Shown here one piece after another: positions 1-27,489 of a stretch of DNA of 31,632 bases. Source of the stretch: a virus (lineage: Duplodnaviria; Caudoviricetes). Both the position numbers and the translations under genes were made by a program. The stretch spans positions 1 through 31,632 of the IMG/VR virus record IMGVR_UViG_3300032227_001423, one strand, 5' to 3'. How positions within the stretch are numbered: the stretch's first letter is position 1; every line of letters starts with the position of its first letter. Below the pieces are notes generated by a model, which saw nothing but the letters and a program-made list of their open reading frames with translations, searched no databases and was not told where the DNA came from.

Positions 1-14
1 TTCTGTATTGTTCA

Positions 15-156
15 GTACTCAATTGATCGAGCACTTATGTTTTACATCTTTATGGATGCTTTACTAAGTGCCCACACTTATCGATTGTCTAATTTTTAAA
101 GAGCAGATAAGATAGTTTGTAACTTCTTGGTTATCGTTCACGCCGTTATGCGGAAC
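15..156 (-). promoter_or_regulatory. rRNA-operon-like leader: boxB-like hairpin (136-156), boxA (91-105), boxC / processing-stem strand (~65-90) and downstream hairpin
   Basis: The minus strand reads TGCTCTTTAAAAATTAGACAATCGATAAGTGTGGGCACTTAG, matching the proteobacterial rrn boxA (TGCTCTTTAAcaA) followed by boxC (GTGTGGGCAC). GGGCACTTA (73-65) can pair with TAAGTGCTC (37-29). Confidence 0.75.
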
Positions 157-187
157 AGTTGTGGTTGTTATTTGTTACTAGTCTACT

Positions 188-216
188 AGTGTAACAGCAT
201 TTACAATTAAAGTCAA
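188..216 (-). promoter_or_regulatory. sigma70-type promoter (P2-like)
   Basis: TTGACT (216-211), 17-bp spacer, TACACT (193-188), with an extended -10 TGn and an A/T-rich upstream region. Confidence 0.75.
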
Positions 217-294
217 GTCTTTTACAACTTTATTTTACCGATTTAGTGTCGTCTTTAAACAACACTTTTCTGTTAAACTTCTTACTAGTTTGTT

Positions 295-323
295 AGTATA
301 GCACCAGTTGATTAGATAGTCAA
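295..323 (-). promoter_or_regulatory. sigma70-type promoter (P1-like)
   Basis: TTGACT (323-318), 17-bp spacer, TATACT (300-295), with an extended -10 TGn and an upstream A tract. Confidence 0.8.
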
Positions 324-438
324 CCTTTTTGTGCCTTTTGTTACAATGAAATGCGTAGATATGTCGAGGGTTTTTGTCGTGCTTTTTACTTAGTGATACT
401 ATTTAAGTATAATACACGTACTTAATGATAAAATCAAC

Positions 439-1569
439 TCAATTGGTAAAACTGCTGTAAACTTCTGGCCAAAGTTCAGCAAAAGATTTGGATGGGGGTA
501 AAAGAGCTTCTTGCTGCGCGGTCCATTCTAAAAACTCAATGTGTTTGTCTGGTTTAACCGTGTCGCGTTTTAGATGGGCTTTGATATCTTGAAGAGACGC
601 ATCAGCGTTGTATTTTTCTGTGACCAGATCAATCTGTTCAATGGCCAACTGTTTAAATGTTTCGTTGTAGCCATCAGGAATAACGCCATAAGATTTTGTA
701 CGCCCGCCGGCTGGTTGGGCAAAACGCCAGTGTTGAGATCCTATTGGGTATTGAGAAATAAAATCATAATATTCAACCAGTCTAGTAGCACTCCAAATAC
801 TGTAAACAGGAATGATACTAATGTGTTGATTTTCTTTAACTAATAAATCTAAATTATGAACAAGTTTATCCCAGCTGGCTCCAGCTCGCACGTATTCAAA
901 TCTATCTCCAACATTTTCAAAGCTCACATACCACCGAACTTGAGATTTTTCTTTTAGTAATTTGTATATTGCATTATTTTCTAGATTAGTAGCTAAATTG
1001 GTAAACACAGTAACTATTACATCTTCTCTACAACTTTTTAGCAGTTCTTCATTTTGTTTTTGTAGCAAGGGCTCGCCACCTAATAAAAATACTTCTTTTA
1101 ATGAATCGTAAGAGTTTTTTACTTCTTCTAAAATACTGGCATGATAATTGCGATTTACTGATTCGGGCGCATCACCTTCTATTTTTGCCCAGGTTGAACT
1201 GTATCGAGAATTGCAATAACGGCAAGACAAATTACATACATTACTCCATCGTAAATCAACGTGTTGTAGGCTGCGGTAACCTGGACTAGTGTGTTTTGTT
1301 GTAAATGCGCTGTATTGGCTGTGTGTTGGTGTAATTTTTTCTGCTTGAACACAACTTGAACAGTATTCAGGAAATCGTTGCTCTGCCAACTCCTGTCGAA
1401 TTTCAATGTATTTTTTGTTGTAGGGGGTGAATATTTCCGACAGCGGTTGTTTATTGATATTGCCCAAGGCACCCTCGCCCATTGGGCCACCAGAACAACA
1501 AGTTTTAATATCACCATTGGTTTCTAAATACAAGCCCACATCAATGGCTGGGCATAAAACATTTGACAT
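439..1569 (-). CDS. radical SAM protein with N-terminal SPASM/twitch-like Cys domain
   Basis: CxxxCxxC motif (CNLSCRYC), GGEP motif (LGGEPLL), and N-terminal C...KTCC...CSSC. Confidence 0.9.
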   Translation of the reverse strand: MSNVLCPAIDVGLYLETNGDIKTCCSGGPMGEGALGNINKQPLSEIFTPYNKKYIEIRQELAEQRFPEYCSSCVQAEKITPTHSQYSAFTTKHTSPGYRSLQHVDLRWSNVCNLSCRYCNSRYSSTWAKIEGDAPESVNRNYHASILEEVKNSYDSLKEVFLLGGEPLLQKQNEELLKSCREDVIVTVFTNLATNLENNAIYKLLKEKSQVRWYVSFENVGDRFEYVRAGASWDKLVHNLDLLVKENQHISIIPVYSIWSATRLVEYYDFISQYPIGSQHWRFAQPAGGRTKSYGVIPDGYNETFKQLAIEQIDLVTEKYNADASLQDIKAHLKRDTVKPDKHIEFLEWTAQQEALLPPSKSFAELWPEVYSSFTN

Positions 1570-1791
1570 TTAGAATAATTTTTTAGGTAGTTGCTGACTA
1601 CGTAGTTGTTTGCGCCAACGTGCTTTGGCAGCACCTTTTTTACGCTTACGTTCTGTGGTGGGCTTTTCGTAGGTTTGACGTTCGCGAAGTTCTTCAAGCA
1701 GACCAGATTCTTGTACTTTTTTCTTAAATTTACGTAGAGCCTTCTCTACATTGCCGTCCTTGACCAATACGCCGTTACCGTAAAAACTCAT
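1570..1791 (-). CDS. rpsU: 30S ribosomal protein bS21
   Basis: 73-aa basic protein with [12 protein letters not shown]...[19 protein letters not shown], the bS21 signature. Confidence 0.95.
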
Positions 1792-2975
1792 TCATTCTCC
1801 TGTGCCAGTGTTGTAGGAGTATTTACCAGGGTTGGACTAATCGCTACTCGTAATATGCTCTGTTTATTGTACCTTTTTAAATCAAACATATGAGGCAACA
1901 AAATACGCTCTAATTCTGAATGCAGGCCACGGGCACCTGTTTTTGTTTTTAATGTGTTCTCTGCTATTAATTCTAAACTTTCTAGGTCAAAATCAAGTTC
2001 TACGCCATCCTGGTCAAACAACCACTGGTATTGTTCTACAAAATTGTGTTTTACTTTGGTTAAAATACTCACCAGTTGTTCTTTGGTTAAATCGTGTAAA
2101 CTGACCACACTACTAAATCTACCTACAAATTCTGGAATCATTCCATACTTGACTAAATCGTCCGGGCCAACCTGGGCGTGTTCTACTGTAGTGTCAGCGG
2201 TCAGTTGAGCGCCAAACCCCATAGAGGTACCTTGAATACGAGTTTTAAGTATTTTATCTAGGCCCACAAACGCACCTCCAGCTACAAACAGTATGTCAGT
2301 AGTATCAATTTCCACTGTGGCATCGGACTTGCGTCCTCCATTGGGACTAATTTTAATTTTTGTGCCTTCTACCAATTTAAGCAAGGCCTGCTGAACACCT
2401 TCGCCACTTACATCTCGACTAACAGTAGCAGATTCACTCTTGCGAGCAATCTTATCAATTTCATCTAAAAATACAATACCACGTTGACACCGATCAATAT
2501 CACAGTCAGCAGCTTGATACAAACGAGATATCAATGAATCTACATCGTCGCCGACATACCCTGCTTCTGTAAGTGTAGTGGCGTCTGCTACTACAAATGG
2601 TACATTTAAATATTCTGCTACAGTTTTAGCCATTAGGGTTTTACCGGTGCCGGTTGGACCAATCATTAGAATATTACTTTTAACAACTTCGTTATCAGGA
2701 TTACTGATACGCTTGTAGTGATTGGCGATTGCTACCGCTAATACAATCTTGGCTTCGGGTTGTCCTACAACATACTCGTCGAGAAAATCGCGAATATCGC
2801 GTGGGTCAGGAATTTTAATAGTAGATGCTTTTGTGATAGATTTTTTGTCTTTGAGAAGACCGCTACATAAATCCACACACTCGTTGCAGATGGCAACATT
2901 GTGACCTACAATTAATTTACCTACTACGTCTTTGTGTTTGGCACAAAACGAGCAATGATGAATGGTATCAGCCAT
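1788..2975 (-). CDS. clpX: ATP-dependent Clp protease ATP-binding subunit ClpX
   Basis: Zinc-binding domain CSFC...CNEC, Walker A GPTGTGKT, pore loop GYVG, Walker [25 protein letters not shown] docking loop, TGARGL. GGAG SD upstream. Confidence 0.96.
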
Positions 2976-5428: not shown

Positions 5429-6106
5429 TTAGTCGTCCTTACGTCCGCCAAACAACTGTAGTAAATTTAAGAACAAGTTAATAAAGTTTAGGTACAGACT
5501 AAGTGCGCCCATGACTTCTTCACGCCCGGTATCGTTATCTTGAGATACTATCTCACGAATATTTTGCGTATCGTAGGCGGTTAATCCCAAGAACACAACA
5601 ATAGCAATGGCACTGATAACCATCTGCATCACTGAGCTACCAATAAAGATATTAATGATACTGGCAATCACAATGGCGATTAAACCAATAAACATAAAAG
5701 AACCAATACTGGATAAATCTTTTTTGGTAAAGTAACCATAAATGCTCATAGTACCAAATAACACAGCGCCGCCCATGAAGGCTGTAAAGATACTGCTTGC
5801 GGTGTAAATGACAAAGATTGTAGCAAAGCTCAGTCCCATAAGCGCACTAAACGCATACAAAAATAACTGTAGCCCAGTCTTGCTAAATCGTTCTGAGGCA
5901 AATGTCATTGCTAGGATACACACCAACGGAGCAAAAATAACAATCCATTTTGTTAGTCCTGTAAAAAAGAATCTTACTAACTCAGGACTGGATCCTACAA
6001 AAAAACTTACCAGCATACTGATAACTACGGCAAGACTCATGTGTCCATACACACGACCCATTGCTTCGTTGATTCCTGAGGCGCTACGATATATTGCTGT
6101 TGTCAT
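5429..6106 (-). CDS. Bax inhibitor-1/YccA family membrane protein
   Basis: About 7 TM helices; YGYFTKKDLS, LTAYDTQNI and GALSLYLNFINLF motifs. AAGGAG SD. Confidence 0.92.
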   Translation of the reverse strand: MTTAIYRSASGINEAMGRVYGHMSLAVVISMLVSFFVGSSPELVRFFFTGLTKWIVIFAPLVCILAMTFASERFSKTGLQLFLYAFSALMGLSFATIFVIYTASSIFTAFMGGAVLFGTMSIYGYFTKKDLSSIGSFMFIGLIAIVIASIINIFIGSSVMQMVISAIAIVVFLGLTAYDTQNIREIVSQDNDTGREEVMGALSLYLNFINLFLNLLQLFGGRKDD

Positions 6107-14021: not shown

Positions 14022-15122
14022 TTATAGGTTTGGTAACGCATCGTAATCAAGGTTATCACTCATGACCCCAATTACGTAATTTGTTGATTCTGATTCTTGT
14101 AGTGCCGTTTGTTTGTTGCTGGTGTTCACGTGCTTGTTGAACCAGGGGATAGGCGTTGTTTTAGGAGCAGGAGTTTGATACTTGACTCCAATTTCTTTGA
14201 GCGCACCTACTGCCGTGTAGTCAACAAAGTCTTTGAGAATGTTGGCATTAAGACCAATCACAGGACCTTTCTGGAACAGGTAGTCAGCCCATTGTTTTTC
14301 TTCACGGATGACATCCAGGTACATTTGATACACTTCTGCTTCACACTCGACCTTGGCTCTAGCAAAGCGTGGATCTTCTTTGACCACTTGGTTAATCATC
14401 CAGGCAGTCCAATCCTTGTGTAGGATTTCGTCTTGTAGGATCAGGCTAATAATGTTACCATTGCCGATGAAGATACGATTTTCAACCATGGCCAAACTTG
14501 TGGCAAAGCTAACCATGAAGCGGAATGCTTCTAGGCCGTAGCTGGCATTAAGCGCCAACCAGATGGCATTGATATGTAATTGTTCGTCAAACTTTTCCAA
14601 CAATTCTTTACGACAGTTAATCATGTGCAAGCGATCATAGTAGAGGCCGATGCTTGACGCCATGCCTACAATTTCTTGTATGTCATGAATCTTGTTGAAT
14701 TCTTCTTTGGGCACGTTGTAAATGTTACGAATGATGTGACTGTAACTACGACTGTGAATGTTTGTCTCAAAGAAGCCCCAGTTGTACATGAGTGCTTCCA
14801 GTTCAGGAATACTACACACAGGTGTAAACACTTGTGTAGGACCACGTCCTTGTAAACTGTCCAAGGCTGTTTGGCGTAACAAGTTACTAGTGAAGATATG
14901 ACGTACTGTGTCTGTGGCTTCTTTGAAGTCGTTGGCATCTTTGGTCAGACTGATTTCTTCCGGAACCCAAAAGAATCCACGTGCTTCTTGCTCAAACTTT
15001 GTAAGTTTGTTGTACTTGACTTCTTCGAAGCGTTGAATAGTAACAGGACCTGCTGGGTCAAGAAACATTTTACGGTGTAGGTAATCTGTTTTGGTTTTTA
15101 AATTATATTGTTGTTGGCTCAT
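14022..15122 (-). CDS. nrdB: ribonucleotide reductase class Ia beta subunit
   Basis: FFWVPEEI, LDSLQ, ETNIHSRSY (E/H ligands and radical Tyr), LEAFRF, DEILH, and C-terminal QESE..NY. Confidence 0.96.
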   Translation of the reverse strand: MSQQQYNLKTKTDYLHRKMFLDPAGPVTIQRFEEVKYNKLTKFEQEARGFFWVPEEISLTKDANDFKEATDTVRHIFTSNLLRQTALDSLQGRGPTQVFTPVCSIPELEALMYNWGFFETNIHSRSYSHIIRNIYNVPKEEFNKIHDIQEIVGMASSIGLYYDRLHMINCRKELLEKFDEQLHINAIWLALNASYGLEAFRFMVSFATSLAMVENRIFIGNGNIISLILQDEILHKDWTAWMINQVVKEDPRFARAKVECEAEVYQMYLDVIREEKQWADYLFQKGPVIGLNANILKDFVDYTAVGALKEIGVKYQTPAPKTTPIPWFNKHVNTSNKQTALQESESTNYVIGVMSDNLDYDALPNL

Positions 15123-16278
15123 AATAGTTTTCGATAAGTTTTGTTAAGTGGGTATTTCTAATGCTATCCAAAGTATCAAGATATTTGTTACGTTCTTCTT
15201 TTAACTTGGGATTAAATTTGTGTTCGTTTACTAATTTTAATGCTTTATCTACAGTCTGCTGATTAAATATTGATTTGGTATTCATCAACTGATTTTTAAA
15301 GCGATTAATAATTTCTACATCAACACTATTTATATGTAAAAAGTTAGGCTCAATTAGTGTTAAATCAACTATTTTTACATGGTGCTGATCGCACCAAGCT
15401 AGTACAGGTATTAATGTTCTTACGCTGAAACACTGCAATATGTAATGTAAATGAAATAGTACATTAGGTAATGCTTTTATATTTAAAATATTTTGTTCAA
15501 CCTCTTGCCAATTGGACAGATATCTGAGTTGATCATTATCTTCACCAATACCTTCTATGCTGGCCAATATTTGAACATGATTAAATTTACTTAGGATGTC
15601 AAGTAGTCTTTGATTGATGCGAGTAGCGTTGGTTACAATGACTATCTTAACCATGCTTGGATCAGGAATGCCGGCTAAAAAATCAATAACATATGGAATC
15701 ATAGTAGGTTCGCCGCCTGTAAATTTGATCCATCTAATATTTGCTTTAATCTTATTTAAAAATTCATTAAACGAAGGATCATCTGGCCATGCATAATCTA
15801 CTCCCAATCCCGGCGCCTGATAAGTTTTAATATTATCAAACTTTTCTTTGTTAAGTTTGTATTCTGTCATTAGCTGACTAGATATGCTTGGATTGCACAT
15901 TACACATTTTAAATTACAAAGATTTCCTAGTCGTAAATCAAAAGTAACAATATCGTTGTCTACGCTGTAGTTATCGGTTATGTCTAGCTTGCTAATAACT
16001 TTTTTAAATTCTCTATTGTAAGAAAGTCTAGCACTTGTAGTTCCAATTTTTTCATCTGTCCAACATCTAGTGCATTCAGGGATTTGTTTTCCTTCTAACA
16101 TATCCTTGCGAACTTGCCGTAACTGATCAGAATTAATCCACTGATCAAATTCTGCGTATCTAGTTGTAGATTTACCCATCCATTGGCAGCATGGTGCCAA
16201 GGTAGAATCAGTTCTCACACAAGCATGGACCCACGGTGCTAAACAAAATGTTGGCGATGCCGGTAACACAATATTCAT
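15103..16278 (-). CDS. radical SAM protein with N-terminal SPASM/twitch-like domain
   Basis: CNLKCVMC, FTGGEPT, and N-terminal FCLAPW...PCC...CTRCW. Confidence 0.9.
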   Translation of the reverse strand: MNIVLPASPTFCLAPWVHACVRTDSTLAPCCQWMGKSTTRYAEFDQWINSDQLRQVRKDMLEGKQIPECTRCWTDEKIGTTSARLSYNREFKKVISKLDITDNYSVDNDIVTFDLRLGNLCNLKCVMCNPSISSQLMTEYKLNKEKFDNIKTYQAPGLGVDYAWPDDPSFNEFLNKIKANIRWIKFTGGEPTMIPYVIDFLAGIPDPSMVKIVIVTNATRINQRLLDILSKFNHVQILASIEGIGEDNDQLRYLSNWQEVEQNILNIKALPNVLFHLHYILQCFSVRTLIPVLAWCDQHHVKIVDLTLIEPNFLHINSVDVEIINRFKNQLMNTKSIFNQQTVDKALKLVNEHKFNPKLKEERNKYLDTLDSIRNTHLTKLIENYYEPTTI

Positions 16279-22572: not shown

Positions 22573-22893
22573 TTAAATTCTAAAGGATTCGCCGCATCCG
22601 CAACGGTCTTTTTCTTGTGGGTTATTAAACTCAAAACCTTCGTTGAGCCCTTGGCGCACATAGTCTACTTCTAAGCCGTCCATCAAGGTCAGGCTTTTGG
22701 GATCAACTACTACAACAAAACCATCTTGCTCAAAGGCTGTATCCTCGGGTGCCAGTGTGTCTACGTATTCTAACACATAAGCAAGACCACTACAGCCAGT
22801 GGTTCTTACACCAAGACGAATGCCCATACCACTGCCACGTTTAATTAAATTTTTGCGGATTTTATCACCCGCTACTGATGTCACTGTAATCAT
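22573..22893 (-). CDS. iscA: A-type iron-sulfur cluster carrier IscA
   Basis: RLGVRTTGCSGLAY and F.NP....CGCGESF. Likely start at 22893 (ATGA overlap). Confidence 0.93.
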   Translation of the reverse strand: MITVTSVAGDKIRKNLIKRGSGMGIRLGVRTTGCSGLAYVLEYVDTLAPEDTAFEQDGFVVVVDPKSLTLMDGLEVDYVRQGLNEGFEFNNPQEKDRCGCGESFRI

Positions 22894-23840
22894 CGTCCAC
22901 ATACTCCACTACAAGCTTGCATTTGTTCAGGTGTATCGAGAGCATTGAGTATTTTATTGTACCACCCAATACCATTATCTAATGTGGTAGGATACTGCCC
23001 TAGTCTTAATTCAGCATCGCCTGCCCACCAAATAAAGTCTGGCTTGTTCATACCAACATGACAACACGGATCAATAGTTCCTTCGGCACTTATGTACATT
23101 GAACGTTGTTCAAGTGCTTCACAAACAGCAGGCCGGTACTTGGCGGTCATTGGTCTAATTCTGTTGCTCTGAGCAAATGTATCGTCAATTTTTTCTGGAA
23201 AGTCGTTGCGAAGATCTTTCATTACAAATACTCTATTGCCTTGCTTGTCGTACACAGGACCTGTGTTACGAACACTGGCCCTGCGATTAAATCCATAAAA
23301 TCCCAAGGTCTGGCTGATACGTTCTGCCTCTTCAAACTGATGCAAATTATGATCAAACTCTGTCATACACCATAAAGCAACTCCGCCGGCATTGATAAAT
23401 GTTTGTGCGTTTTTAATCACTGTGTCATACACCGTATTTTGTCTGTACAAGGAATGAGTATCTTCTAACCCGTCAATACAAAAAGAAACTATTGGTCGAT
23501 ATTCAGCCAGCTTGGTCCAGAATTCGCGATCTCTTGCTCCGCCATTGGTACTGATGTCTATCTTTAAAGCAGGATTATGCTTGCGAAACCACGCAACAAT
23601 TTCTATGCTCTCAGGGTTCATTACAAAATCACCGTAATTGCCGTTGATTAATATTTCATCCAGCTGTGCTACAAATTCTACAGGCAACAATGATTTAATT
23701 TTTTCCAATGACAGGTTCGTTACCTCGTATCCAAAATTGAATGGATAGCCGTGAAAATTTCTTGGGCATTGGGGGCAACGAGCATTACAATCTGAACTTA
23801 CTTCAAGGTGTAAATGCCTAACATCTGATAATTTTATCAC
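22890..23840 (-). CDS. radical SAM protein with C-terminal twitch-like domain
   Basis: CNARCPQC, STNGG, IDGL, and C-terminal C...PCC...C..VC. Confidence 0.88.
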   Translation of the reverse strand: MIKLSDVRHLHLEVSSDCNARCPQCPRNFHGYPFNFGYEVTNLSLEKIKSLLPVEFVAQLDEILINGNYGDFVMNPESIEIVAWFRKHNPALKIDISTNGGARDREFWTKLAEYRPIVSFCIDGLEDTHSLYRQNTVYDTVIKNAQTFINAGGVALWCMTEFDHNLHQFEEAERISQTLGFYGFNRRASVRNTGPVYDKQGNRVFVMKDLRNDFPEKIDDTFAQSNRIRPMTAKYRPAVCEALEQRSMYISAEGTIDPCCHVGMNKPDFIWWAGDAELRLGQYPTTLDNGIGWYNKILNALDTPEQMQACSGVCGR

Positions 23841-24211
23841 TGGTGTTTCTTTTTGTAATCTTCTACAGCGGCCTTGATTGCGTCTTCAGCAAGTATTGAG
23901 CAATGGATCTTGACTGGAGGAAGTGCGAGTTCCTCTGCAATCGCGCTGTTCTTAATCTCGCCTGCTTGCTCGAGCGTTTTGCCCTTGACCCATTCCGTGA
24001 CCAGCGAGCTTGACGCAATCGCTGAACCACACCCATACGTCTTAAACTTGGCGTCCACAATAATTCCATCTTCTACCTTTATCTGTAGTTTCATCACGTC
24101 ACCACAGGCAGGTGCGCCGACCATGCCAGTGCCTACTGTGTCGTCAATTTCCATCTTGCCCACGTTGCGTGGATTTTCATAGTGATCTATGACTTTTTCT
24201 GAGTATGCCAT
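23837..24211 (-). CDS. iscU: Fe-S cluster scaffold IscU
   Basis: YSEKVIDHYENPRNVG, GAPACGDVM, GCGSAIASSS and LPPVKIHC. Confidence 0.97.
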   Translation of the reverse strand: MAYSEKVIDHYENPRNVGKMEIDDTVGTGMVGAPACGDVMKLQIKVEDGIIVDAKFKTYGCGSAIASSSLVTEWVKGKTLEQAGEIKNSAIAEELALPPVKIHCSILAEDAIKAAVEDYKKKHQ

Positions 24212-24519
24212 TAGTTAGGTACCAATACTGTGCGATAACAATTACAATTACTATCAAGAATATTTTCTTGACGATATCCAACCGGAATTGGATTAGCTTG
24301 CTGAACATAAGTTACCTGTGGCTGTACATACACCACCTGTGGCGGATAATACACTGGTTGTACATAATATTGGCGGTTAGCCAGGTAACCAATGCCTGCT
24401 CCCACTACAAAAGGTGCCACCCAGTTGTTGCGGTATCCATTGTTGTAATAGCCGTTGTTGTGCCAGGCAAAGGCTGATGCCGATACTGTCATTAATGCTA
24501 GTGCGAGAATCTTTTTCAT
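24211..24519 (-). CDS. small exported Tyr/Pro/Val-rich protein
   Basis: Signal peptide ending AFA, short Gly-rich hydrophobic stretch, YVQP repeats, AGGAG SD. Confidence 0.75.
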   Translation of the reverse strand: MKKILALALMTVSASAFAWHNNGYYNNGYRNNWVAPFVVGAGIGYLANRQYYVQPVYYPPQVVYVQPQVTYVQQANPIPVGYRQENILDSNCNCYRTVLVPN

Positions 24520-24549
24520 TTACTTCTCCTATTTGTACTACTAATAGTA

Positions 24550-24578
24550 ATTATACTATTTTTTGATTTTTTTGTCAA
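24550..24578 (-). promoter_or_regulatory. consensus sigma70 promoter for the iscU-radical SAM-iscA unit
   Basis: TTGACA (24578-24573), 17-bp spacer, TATAAT (24555-24550). Confidence 0.85.
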
Positions 24579-25453
24579 ATCTTATTGGGTTTTAGGTTAG
24601 TAAACTCAATTTTATGCCATTCGAACGATTCTGGGCAAAATTTACATTGCGGAATTGGGTTATCTATGTTGGCAAAGAATTCGGCTCCGCGTGTGTCAAA
24701 ATCATCAAAACTCAAGCCCGGGTCTGTGTACAATAGTGCCCGATCTTCATCGCTAAGGTCAAACGGATACTGTTGATCAAATTCCACCATCAACGGAGCA
24801 GGTCCGCACTTGTAAACCTTGCCCTTGATCATGTGATAATTTTTATGTAACACCTGTGGACAGGCCTTGTGTGCTTCTATTGGGTCGCTTTGATACAAGG
24901 TGCGTGTTCCGTCAGGTCGTTCAATGATATTATTTTGTAAAAATTCTGTAGTCATCCATACATGCACTTGGACATAATTGGCGTCAATAAACTGATAATC
25001 AGAATTCATATCTGTTCTTAGCTGTGGCCCTTCTTGTATGGGATGTTTTAAAAAATTTCTAATTCTACGGAAAACTATTTCCTTATCTTCGTCTCGGTGT
25101 AAACTTATGCCAATAAACGTATCTGTTTTTTGACATGATTCGTACAGCCCTTTGACTTGATCAATGCGAGCACCGTTACTGATAATTTGTGGAGAGAACG
25201 TGTCAGGCCATGCTGCTCGAATACCCTCAACCCATTTATTGATAGAGGGATTGAGCAAGGGTTCTCCACCGAGAATAAACGGTTTTATTACTTTAATTTT
25301 TTTTGCCCAGGCTTGAATGACATTGGCGTAGTCGTCGTAGTCTTGCCAACCAGAAAATTTGTAGTTATTGTATCGGTTACATCCGGAGCAGGTTAAATTA
25401 CAAACATTTGTAATGTAGAATTCGAGCTTGTCGACAACAATGCGATTATCCAT
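24575..25453 (-). CDS. radical SAM protein
   Basis: CNLTCSGC, LGGEPLLNP, SNG, and C-terminal C...YKC...CKFC. Confidence 0.88.
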   Translation of the reverse strand: MDNRIVVDKLEFYITNVCNLTCSGCNRYNNYKFSGWQDYDDYANVIQAWAKKIKVIKPFILGGEPLLNPSINKWVEGIRAAWPDTFSPQIISNGARIDQVKGLYESCQKTDTFIGISLHRDEDKEIVFRRIRNFLKHPIQEGPQLRTDMNSDYQFIDANYVQVHVWMTTEFLQNNIIERPDGTRTLYQSDPIEAHKACPQVLHKNYHMIKGKVYKCGPAPLMVEFDQQYPFDLSDEDRALLYTDPGLSFDDFDTRGAEFFANIDNPIPQCKFCPESFEWHKIEFTNLKPNKI

Positions 25454-26781: not shown

Positions 26782-27229
26782 TATTAAATCCTCGTTGTTG
26801 ACAGTATTTAGCATAGTTGATACATTTGGTTAATTCCTGCTCTACTTGTTTTTTGCGTATAATCTTGGTTTCTAGTTTAGTTTCAATAGTTTCGCGAAAT
26901 TGTGGCTCTTTACTGCGGTCTGCAATATTGGCTCTAGTATTGATATCGTTTGTTAAACTGCGTAGTTTTACGTCTAAATTAAAAATATCACGGGCAAGAT
27001 TGTATGCTTGATTTTTATCTGCAATACACCAGCTGAGTGCTGTTCTTGTAGAGCCAAATAAGCCCACGTCTGTTGCTGAACAAAGTACACGAAATCCGAT
27101 TTGCTCGTTGACAATGCGGTAACGATCAAACACACGATAACTGTCATCTTCATCACGAAATATTAAATTTTTCATAATGTCAGGAAATTCCTGACGCATT
27201 ATCTGATCAAACTCTTTTGTGATTTTCAT
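26735..27229 (-). CDS. hypothetical protein
   Basis: 164-aa ORF with a C-terminal coiled coil. Confidence 0.7.
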   Translation of the reverse strand: MKITKEFDQIMRQEFPDIMKNLIFRDEDDSYRVFDRYRIVNEQIGFRVLCSATDVGLFGSTRTALSWCIADKNQAYNLARDIFNLDVKLRSLTNDINTRANIADRSKEPQFRETIETKLETKIIRKKQVEQELTKCINYAKYCQQRGFNNETIRTSRQPNKERR

Positions 27230-27489
27230 TTAATTATGTAATGGGTAACAAGATAAATTACCGAAGCAGATAACGCACCAATTATACCTATGCCCCATGA
27301 TATTAATCTGTCATTGTTTTTTTCAGCCATTTTGCTTACAGCTGACTTTACTTCACTTATCATTGCACCAAGGGCTGTTAATTTTTCGTCAACGGTTTCG
27401 ATCTTGATTTCGAGCGCATTGTAACGTTCAGCGCATAGCTCAACGTGAGCTTCTAGGCTCTTTTTTTCAATATCTGTGGTTTCAACCAT
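27226..27489 (-). CDS. small coiled-coil protein with C-terminal TM helix (XhlA/holin-like architecture)
   Basis: LEAHVELCAERY..LE heptads followed by a hydrophobic C-terminus. Confidence 0.7.
   Translation of the reverse strand: MVETTDIEKKSLEAHVELCAERYNALEIKIETVDEKLTALGAMISEVKSAVSKMAEKNNDRLISWGIGIIGALSASVIYLVTHYIIK

Follow-up and report, generated by a model that had tools for sequence, protein, structure and literature searches.

The phage DNA studied here, a window of 31,632 nt that constitutes one virus record in full (G000), very probably belongs to a phage with its own 16S rRNA gene, which starts 2 nt outside the window, to the left of position 1, and directly follows an rRNA-operon-type leader on the minus strand. 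The original prediction had placed the start of a long non-coding RNA just left of the window, and of the options it named the rRNA gene was the right one: six of seven metagenome contigs with this leader continue into 16S (RF00177), starting 2 nt past the base that matches window position 1, the seventh stops short of the 16S start, and the sequence following the leader rules out a tRNA array, a CRISPR array and a leader-only decoy. In two of these contigs, L014 and L015, the full 1,539-nt 16S gene was found between phage bS21 and hsp20-clpS, in the order bS21-leader-16S-trailer-hsp20-clpS, followed by a metallophosphoesterase gene. On every sequence test the RNA is a 16S rRNA, yet the unit is not an rrn operon.

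The gene content of the window is that of a large tailed phage, here one from fresh water, and includes ligase and ribonucleotide reductase besides virion structural proteins, a tail spike, PAAR and an endolysin. The nearest IMG/VR relative (the L001 record) encodes T4-type UvsX, UvsY, ssb, primase and endonuclease VII, and a terminase was found in one of five relatives (G002, itself without the cassette), so that virion, T4-type replication genes and terminase of a T4-like large tailed phage are all present across the window and its relatives; the sheath family was found in none of the five relatives, all of which are fragments. Directly upstream of the leader lie clpX (1788–2975, minus strand; Pfam zf-C4_ClpX and AAA_2, with synteny in relatives) and the bS21 gene rpsU (1570–1791, minus strand; PF01165, E 2e-17). 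ClpX forms the upstream anchor of a conserved block, clpX-bS21-[variable slot]-hsp20-clpS. The bS21 protein is 55–59% identical to five Burkholderiales bS21 proteins and has an identical counterpart on record, encoded on a 361,177-bp contig; with the CheckV completeness of 43–45% obtained for relatives of 152–159 kb, this makes a phage genome size of about 350 kb likely. The radical SAM/SPASM gene between bS21 and the leader (439–1569, minus strand) is a variable filler which differs or is missing in relatives, and lies outside the cassette proper. Over the window, ARAGORN returned no tRNA and Rfam no RNA, the latter because the 16S gene lies outside it.

All elements of the original prediction were located on the minus strand, and the predicted rrn-leader architecture in a phage is borne out as one of Burkholderiales type. 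A predicted sigma70-like promoter with an extended −10, P1 (295–323), has a −10 hexamer identical in all seven phage leaders. The promoter-like site P2 (188–216), flanked by 8-nt direct repeats at 282–289 and 175–182, was present in three of the seven, and accordingly both sites of the proposed tandem P1/P2 exist, whereas the tandem arrangement itself is variable, with P2 missing from four leaders. To these we add a third predicted sigma70-like promoter, P0 (409–437), with a consensus −10 in L001 and L013–L015, and an element antisense to 16S helix 23 (340–369), which the position of P0 would place inside the P0 transcript. By themselves, promoter matches are at chance level (8 against 6.1 ± 2.2 in shuffles of 1–2000). 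A GC-rich discriminator is the mark of stringently controlled rrn promoters. The phage promoters are AT-rich after the −10, unlike the bacterial rrn promoter compared, and look phage-type, with no apparent homology to that promoter; stringently controlled P1/P2 promoters are not what was found. On the plus strand, a promoter-like site at 385–413 stands back to back with P0 and is aimed at the radical SAM gene, towards its 3′-end.

Upstream of boxA, a hairpin with an invariant AUAACG loop (136–156) was supported by covariation, 41 of 41 cells being paired and four of seven pairs changed on both sides, a level reached by none of 500 shuffles, with the alignment consisting of just six distinct related rows. 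The hairpin called "boxB-like" is thus present, but the name is a positional label, given the loop AUAACG. It is followed by a conserved A-rich block, and neither feature occurs in the four bacterial leaders compared. The boxA element (91–105) is identical to that of E. coli rrnH and of Burkholderiales leaders, and the block of boxA and boxC (65–90) is invariant across the seven aligned leaders. The boxA-boxC pattern occurred at 120 genome loci and was of rrn-leader type in all 80 listed with titles and in all matches listed, nearly all of the listed matches being Burkholderiales. The remaining pre-16S leader (1–73) contains a local hairpin at 73–29. A "mini" precursor closed by this hairpin was considered and rejected, as the bacterial leader has a hairpin in the same position and the true trailer follows 16S. 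Binding of NusB/NusE to boxA and cleavage of the helix by RNase III are predicted from the sequence match.

A search with ClpX returned 11 viral loci, among them L001, in which the leader is conserved at 78% over 436 nt and breaks off exactly where the window does; the expected conservation of the leader in related phages was thereby confirmed. The seven metagenome contigs came from a scan with the boxA-boxC 33-mer. Three of them are partly misassembled, and hence both flanks of the gene are visible in just two, L014 and L015. The tRNA and 23S genes of L013 were set aside, since this contig equals L015 up to about nt 1200, beyond which a chimeric join leads into 16S, tRNA and 23S genes of foreign origin; likewise set aside were a strand flip in L012, as a misassembly, and the upstream genes of L017, a contig joining two related phages. 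In L014 and L015 the complementary arm that had been predicted downstream immediately follows the 3′-end of 16S, and their trailer pairs with the 5′ arm of the leader-trailer helix in the window (97–55, including boxC) over about 41 bp at −56.4 kcal/mol, compared with −18.0 ± 3.5 kcal/mol for 500 shuffled trailers. A boxA-boxC leader and a leader-trailer helix around 16S, both features of bacterial rrn units, are thus in place. The succession of spacer tRNA, 23S and 5S is missing from L014 and L015, in which no tRNA or 23S gene follows 16S, the next gene being hsp20, or a homing endonuclease and then hsp20. The homing endonuclease is encoded between the 16S trailer and hsp20 at L015:3476–3970, where the hairpin region upstream of hsp20 is partly duplicated.

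The joining of a bacterial rrn operon to phage DNA, either as an assembly chimera or at a provirus border, would also place such a gene beside phage DNA, and it draws some support from the chimeras encountered here (L012, L013 after about nt 1200, L017), from the classification of the L001 record as a provirus by IMG/VR, and from true host rrn borders on other viral records (L236, L246 and L249). It is nevertheless very improbable, as two contigs, each assembled separately, have phage genes on both flanks, the synteny with the empty sites is exact, and both junctions are crossed by unbranched contigs. In a public run that is possibly the source of the window (X1), one unbranched contig covers 1–1800 at a depth of 19.1 with 0 differences and extends the window by 27 nt, so the depth is even over the region in which a coverage jump had been a concern. 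In a second run of the same study (X3), an unbranched 131-nt contig identical to window 1–104 reaches 16S nt 25, and another unbranched contig spans the junction between the 3′-end of 16S and the trailer. In X1, pieces of phage-type 16S had depths of 26 and 16, the window having 19; for the window's own lineage, 16S was seen as such pieces and not together with the trailer in one contig, and X1 contigs gave no cover of the L014 hsp20 side at 88% likeness. Also speaking against a chimera, a 42-nt signature of the phage 16S had no match in the genome collection, and the best identity to bacteria was 84%, as determined from 401 Burkholderiales genomes (270 matching), 81 genomes of the nearest genus (61 matching) and plasmids.

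The phage-16S signature had 0 matches in IMG/VR, RF00177 was found in none of five viral records, all fragments, and the first viral pattern scan, a search for the radical SAM locus and a leader blastn against 50,697 phage records returned no match. Relaxed leader, trailer and antisense patterns retrieved from IMG/VR only the L001 record and L139/L230; of 45 pattern loci in IMG/VR, two were from among these records, three were the bacterial rrn borders mentioned above and 40 had no link. A further 34 phage records matched 16S, with 79.8% as the best full-length identity, and, to judge by title and length in the 30 listed, they seem to be host contigs that were entered as phages. IMG/VR records end exactly at the 16S 5′- or 3′-end, L139 beginning just past the 3′-end, and we infer that such ends result from trimming of rRNA as host DNA.

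The phage 16S sequences match RF00177 over full length (model 1–1533) with 1,532 bits for L014 and 1,536 bits for L015, within the 1,526–1,580 bits of 20 bacterial 16S sequences, and retain the conserved secondary structure and functional nucleotides. Prediction from 56 bacterial sequences gave 467 pairs; between L014 and its nearest bacterium, 360 of these are unchanged, both sides have changed in 61 and one side in 27, and 19 are broken, whereas random placement of the same 249 substitutions (1,000 runs) gave 6, 43 and 100 for the last three classes. The 61 compensatory changes against six expected demonstrate that the 16S structure is under selection. Several of the 19 broken pairs look like mispredicted pairs, and in the 3′ half non-standard pairs by the Rfam model were confined to the V6 helix. 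Variants of the phage 16S are 90–98% alike, their differences being compensated changes. A decaying relic of transduced host DNA is, for this reason, hardly credible; generalized transduction does package host 16S genes, going by the title of a 2005 study by Beumer and Robinson, but the compensatory change far exceeds the random model, which largely refutes this reading, and promoters, boxA and both helix arms have been kept across lineages with widely differing ClpX.

In the phage 16S, 54 positions at which all 56 bacteria agree are changed, most of them pairwise (such as 291-309, 784-798, 930-1387 and 1509-1526), whereas any single Burkholderiales sequence has at most six such private changes. 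A few conserved unpaired positions are changed as well. This, together with the long branch described below (0.30–0.34) and the lack of a 23S partner downstream, would suit an RNA that folds like 16S without translating and acts as a decoy that titrates away ribosomal proteins, factors of ribosome assembly or rRNases directed against phages. Such a role is improbable, however, since the decoding centre, the anti-SD, the central pseudoknot and the processing helix have been kept at full length, beyond the needs of a sponge: the anti-SD, the 530 loop, A1492/A1493, C1054 and G926, positions with established roles, are all unchanged. Use of the phage 16S in ribosomes is, judged from these sequences, likely. 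There was no sign of an orthogonal mRNA code, the anti-SD being canonical and a Shine-Dalgarno-like site preceding only 12 of the 36 window genes. The 16S of L014 has compensated swaps at E. coli 1409/1491, by the decoding site, and at 1509-1510/1525-1526 in helix 45; U1409-A1491 is common to two of 55 Burkholderiales.

The 16S gene is of Burkholderiales origin. It forms a single long branch within this order, the position of which differs between two trees, and a clade of the phage with the G177 genus was not rejected (p-AU 0.34). Leader and trailer align over their full length with those of the G177 genus, the phage leader being a shortened form of about 107 nt as compared to about 167 nt in Burkholderiales rrn, and this alignment points to the same genus as origin. 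The genus is also the likely host of the phage. The genomes of this nearest genus (G177, G095, G318) are 1.1–2.9 Mb in size and are placed beside Cupriavidus; presumably they belong to Polynucleobacter.

In relatives, the slot between bS21 and hsp20 varies. The cassette was missing from nine of the 11 ClpX loci, in which bS21 and hsp20-clpS are kept (L008 is too short to tell), and it is consequently dispensable. In three cassette-free relatives the bS21-hsp20 spacer is only 111–113 bp long and can be aligned to the sequence that follows the trailer in L014, while five loci (L003, L004, L005, L009 and L010) have in this slot genes resembling dnaK or groES/groEL, as judged by eye from their N-termini. 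A gene pair resembling CsgF/CsgG of curli secretion was observed downstream of clpS in L015 (3–1305) and in L003, L004, L005 and L010.

The antisense element is located upstream of P1 and is complementary to the 690 loop and the 3′ strand of helix 23. Its 23-nt core, at about 342–364, is invariant in all seven leaders, absent from all ten loci L002–L011 and not seen in the four bacterial leaders compared. Complementarity of the core to the L151 16S extends to 22 of 23 nt (E 4e-4), and the longest exact match of the element was 18 nt, with at most 16 nt in 500 shuffles. When the window was tiled into 903 35-mers, only one paired comparably (−44.1 kcal/mol, the next −25.8), and this is presumably the tile over the element. 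The element is unstructured, and the two invariant departures of the core from its target become U-G wobbles in the antisense sense; a conserved, unstructured complement downstream of a promoter-like site is what is expected of an antisense RNA. Of 25 loci from the G177 genus, 23 pair with the element at −47.0 kcal/mol, versus −39.6 kcal/mol for the phage's own 16S, in which the pairs 681:709 and 682:708 are swapped at the target. After opening costs the gap between host and own target is 3–6 kcal/mol (net −33.6 versus −27.9, own helix 23 being weaker). Since strong pairing of the element with helix 23 of the phage itself is retained, the modelled discrimination between host and phage is partial, and a role in cis would fit too. 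Guidance of a radical SAM enzyme by the element was dismissed, this gene not being conserved among cassette carriers. In 30S assembly, helices 23–24 are described as a folding barrier, on failure of which uS11 and bS21 are missing (10.1101/525360).

The explanation which we favour, and consider fairly probable as a whole, is that of a hybrid 30S cassette combined with an antisense RNA hampering host pre-16S. T4-like jumbo phages would carry a stand-alone 16S cassette between bS21 and hsp20, to be transcribed by host RNA polymerase from P0, P1 and P2 under boxA antitermination, and host RNase III would free the pre-16S from the leader-trailer helix. The phage 16S would then join host proteins, and perhaps the phage bS21, in a hybrid 30S working with the host 50S, the latter because no 23S follows the phage 16S. 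The freed leader would let the antisense element hamper helix-23 folding in host pre-16S, favouring the phage copy. Transcription, processing and assembly of the phage 16S are likely. That the antisense element acts in trans on host 16S is a tentative proposal, with chances slightly short of even, and more doubtful still, though possible, is a full knock-down-and-replace scheme in which the element would block host helix 23 while the recoded 16S and bS21 would form a phage-type 30S with the host 50S.

Alternatively, the phage 16S may be a functional supplement or spare, providing extra 30S or substituting for host 16S cut by a defence system, with the antisense element working in cis, where it would time or switch the folding of the nascent phage helix 23. 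In favour of this, the element belongs to the same predicted transcript as the phage helix and is still able to pair with it, the slot is filled by chaperone genes in other relatives, and the 54 altered otherwise-invariant positions could confer nuclease immunity. This seems rather unlikely, since a cis partner should track the phage sequence, whereas the element retains the host letters where the phage 16S has changed.

Compared to known systems, the phage cassette shares with the Burkholderiales rrn operon boxA, boxC, the leader hairpin, the leader-trailer helix and a full 16S with anti-SD, and differs from it by being located in a phage, without tRNA, 23S or 5S after 16S, by its own promoters, by an identity of at most 84% and by the upstream anti-helix-23 element. 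Known phage translation genes encode proteins and tRNAs, including bS21, other ribosomal proteins and initiation factors (PMC6375957, PMC9723584, PMC7162821, PMC6802176); within the portions available, the rRNA passages of PMC6375957 and PMC9723584 concern host 16S, and PMC7162821 does not contain the word rRNA. The logic of 30S platform takeover in a large aquatic phage is alike, here with bS21 1.2 kb upstream, whereas the parts described in those sources are proteins or tRNAs, as opposed to an rRNA. 16S matches of near-full length were also present in 621 plasmid records, and rRNA genes off the main chromosome are a likeness to plasmid and chromid rrn operons. Plasmids and chromids are cellular replicons, with rRNA genes close to those of their host, in contrast to the viral, lone and diverged 16S described here. 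The generalized transducing phage SN-T, the subject of a 2005 study by Beumer and Robinson, reportedly carries acquired 16S genes of several host genera; 16S DNA is thus tied to a phage in both cases, and the difference, going by the title of that study, is the fixed locus, own lineage and structural selection of the present gene.

In the full-text literature, a scope outside which most subscription papers fall and in which supplements might list rRNA-bearing contigs, there was no report of a phage-encoded 16S or of an anti-helix-23 RNA. To our knowledge, the absence of rRNA genes is among the last lines dividing viruses from cells. rRNA on a viral contig is routinely taken as contamination, and with trimming at the 16S ends such genes would escape the notice of surveys. 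With its structure under selection, the phage 16S constitutes a natural experiment in hybrid ribosomes, and the leader element offers a testable anti-rRNA antisense mechanism. Five of six common 16S primers match L014 and L015 with zero mismatches, 1492R having three in L014, and amplicon surveys could therefore log the virus as an unknown deep-branching betaproteobacterium.

Elsewhere in the window, IscA-like and IscU-like Fe-S genes occur alongside four radical SAM genes (22573–25453, 15103–16278 and 439–1569). A membrane protein of the Bax inhibitor-1 family is encoded at 5429–6106, and the region 27226–27489 gave a weak PHROG match (E 7e-5) to a family named hemolysin.
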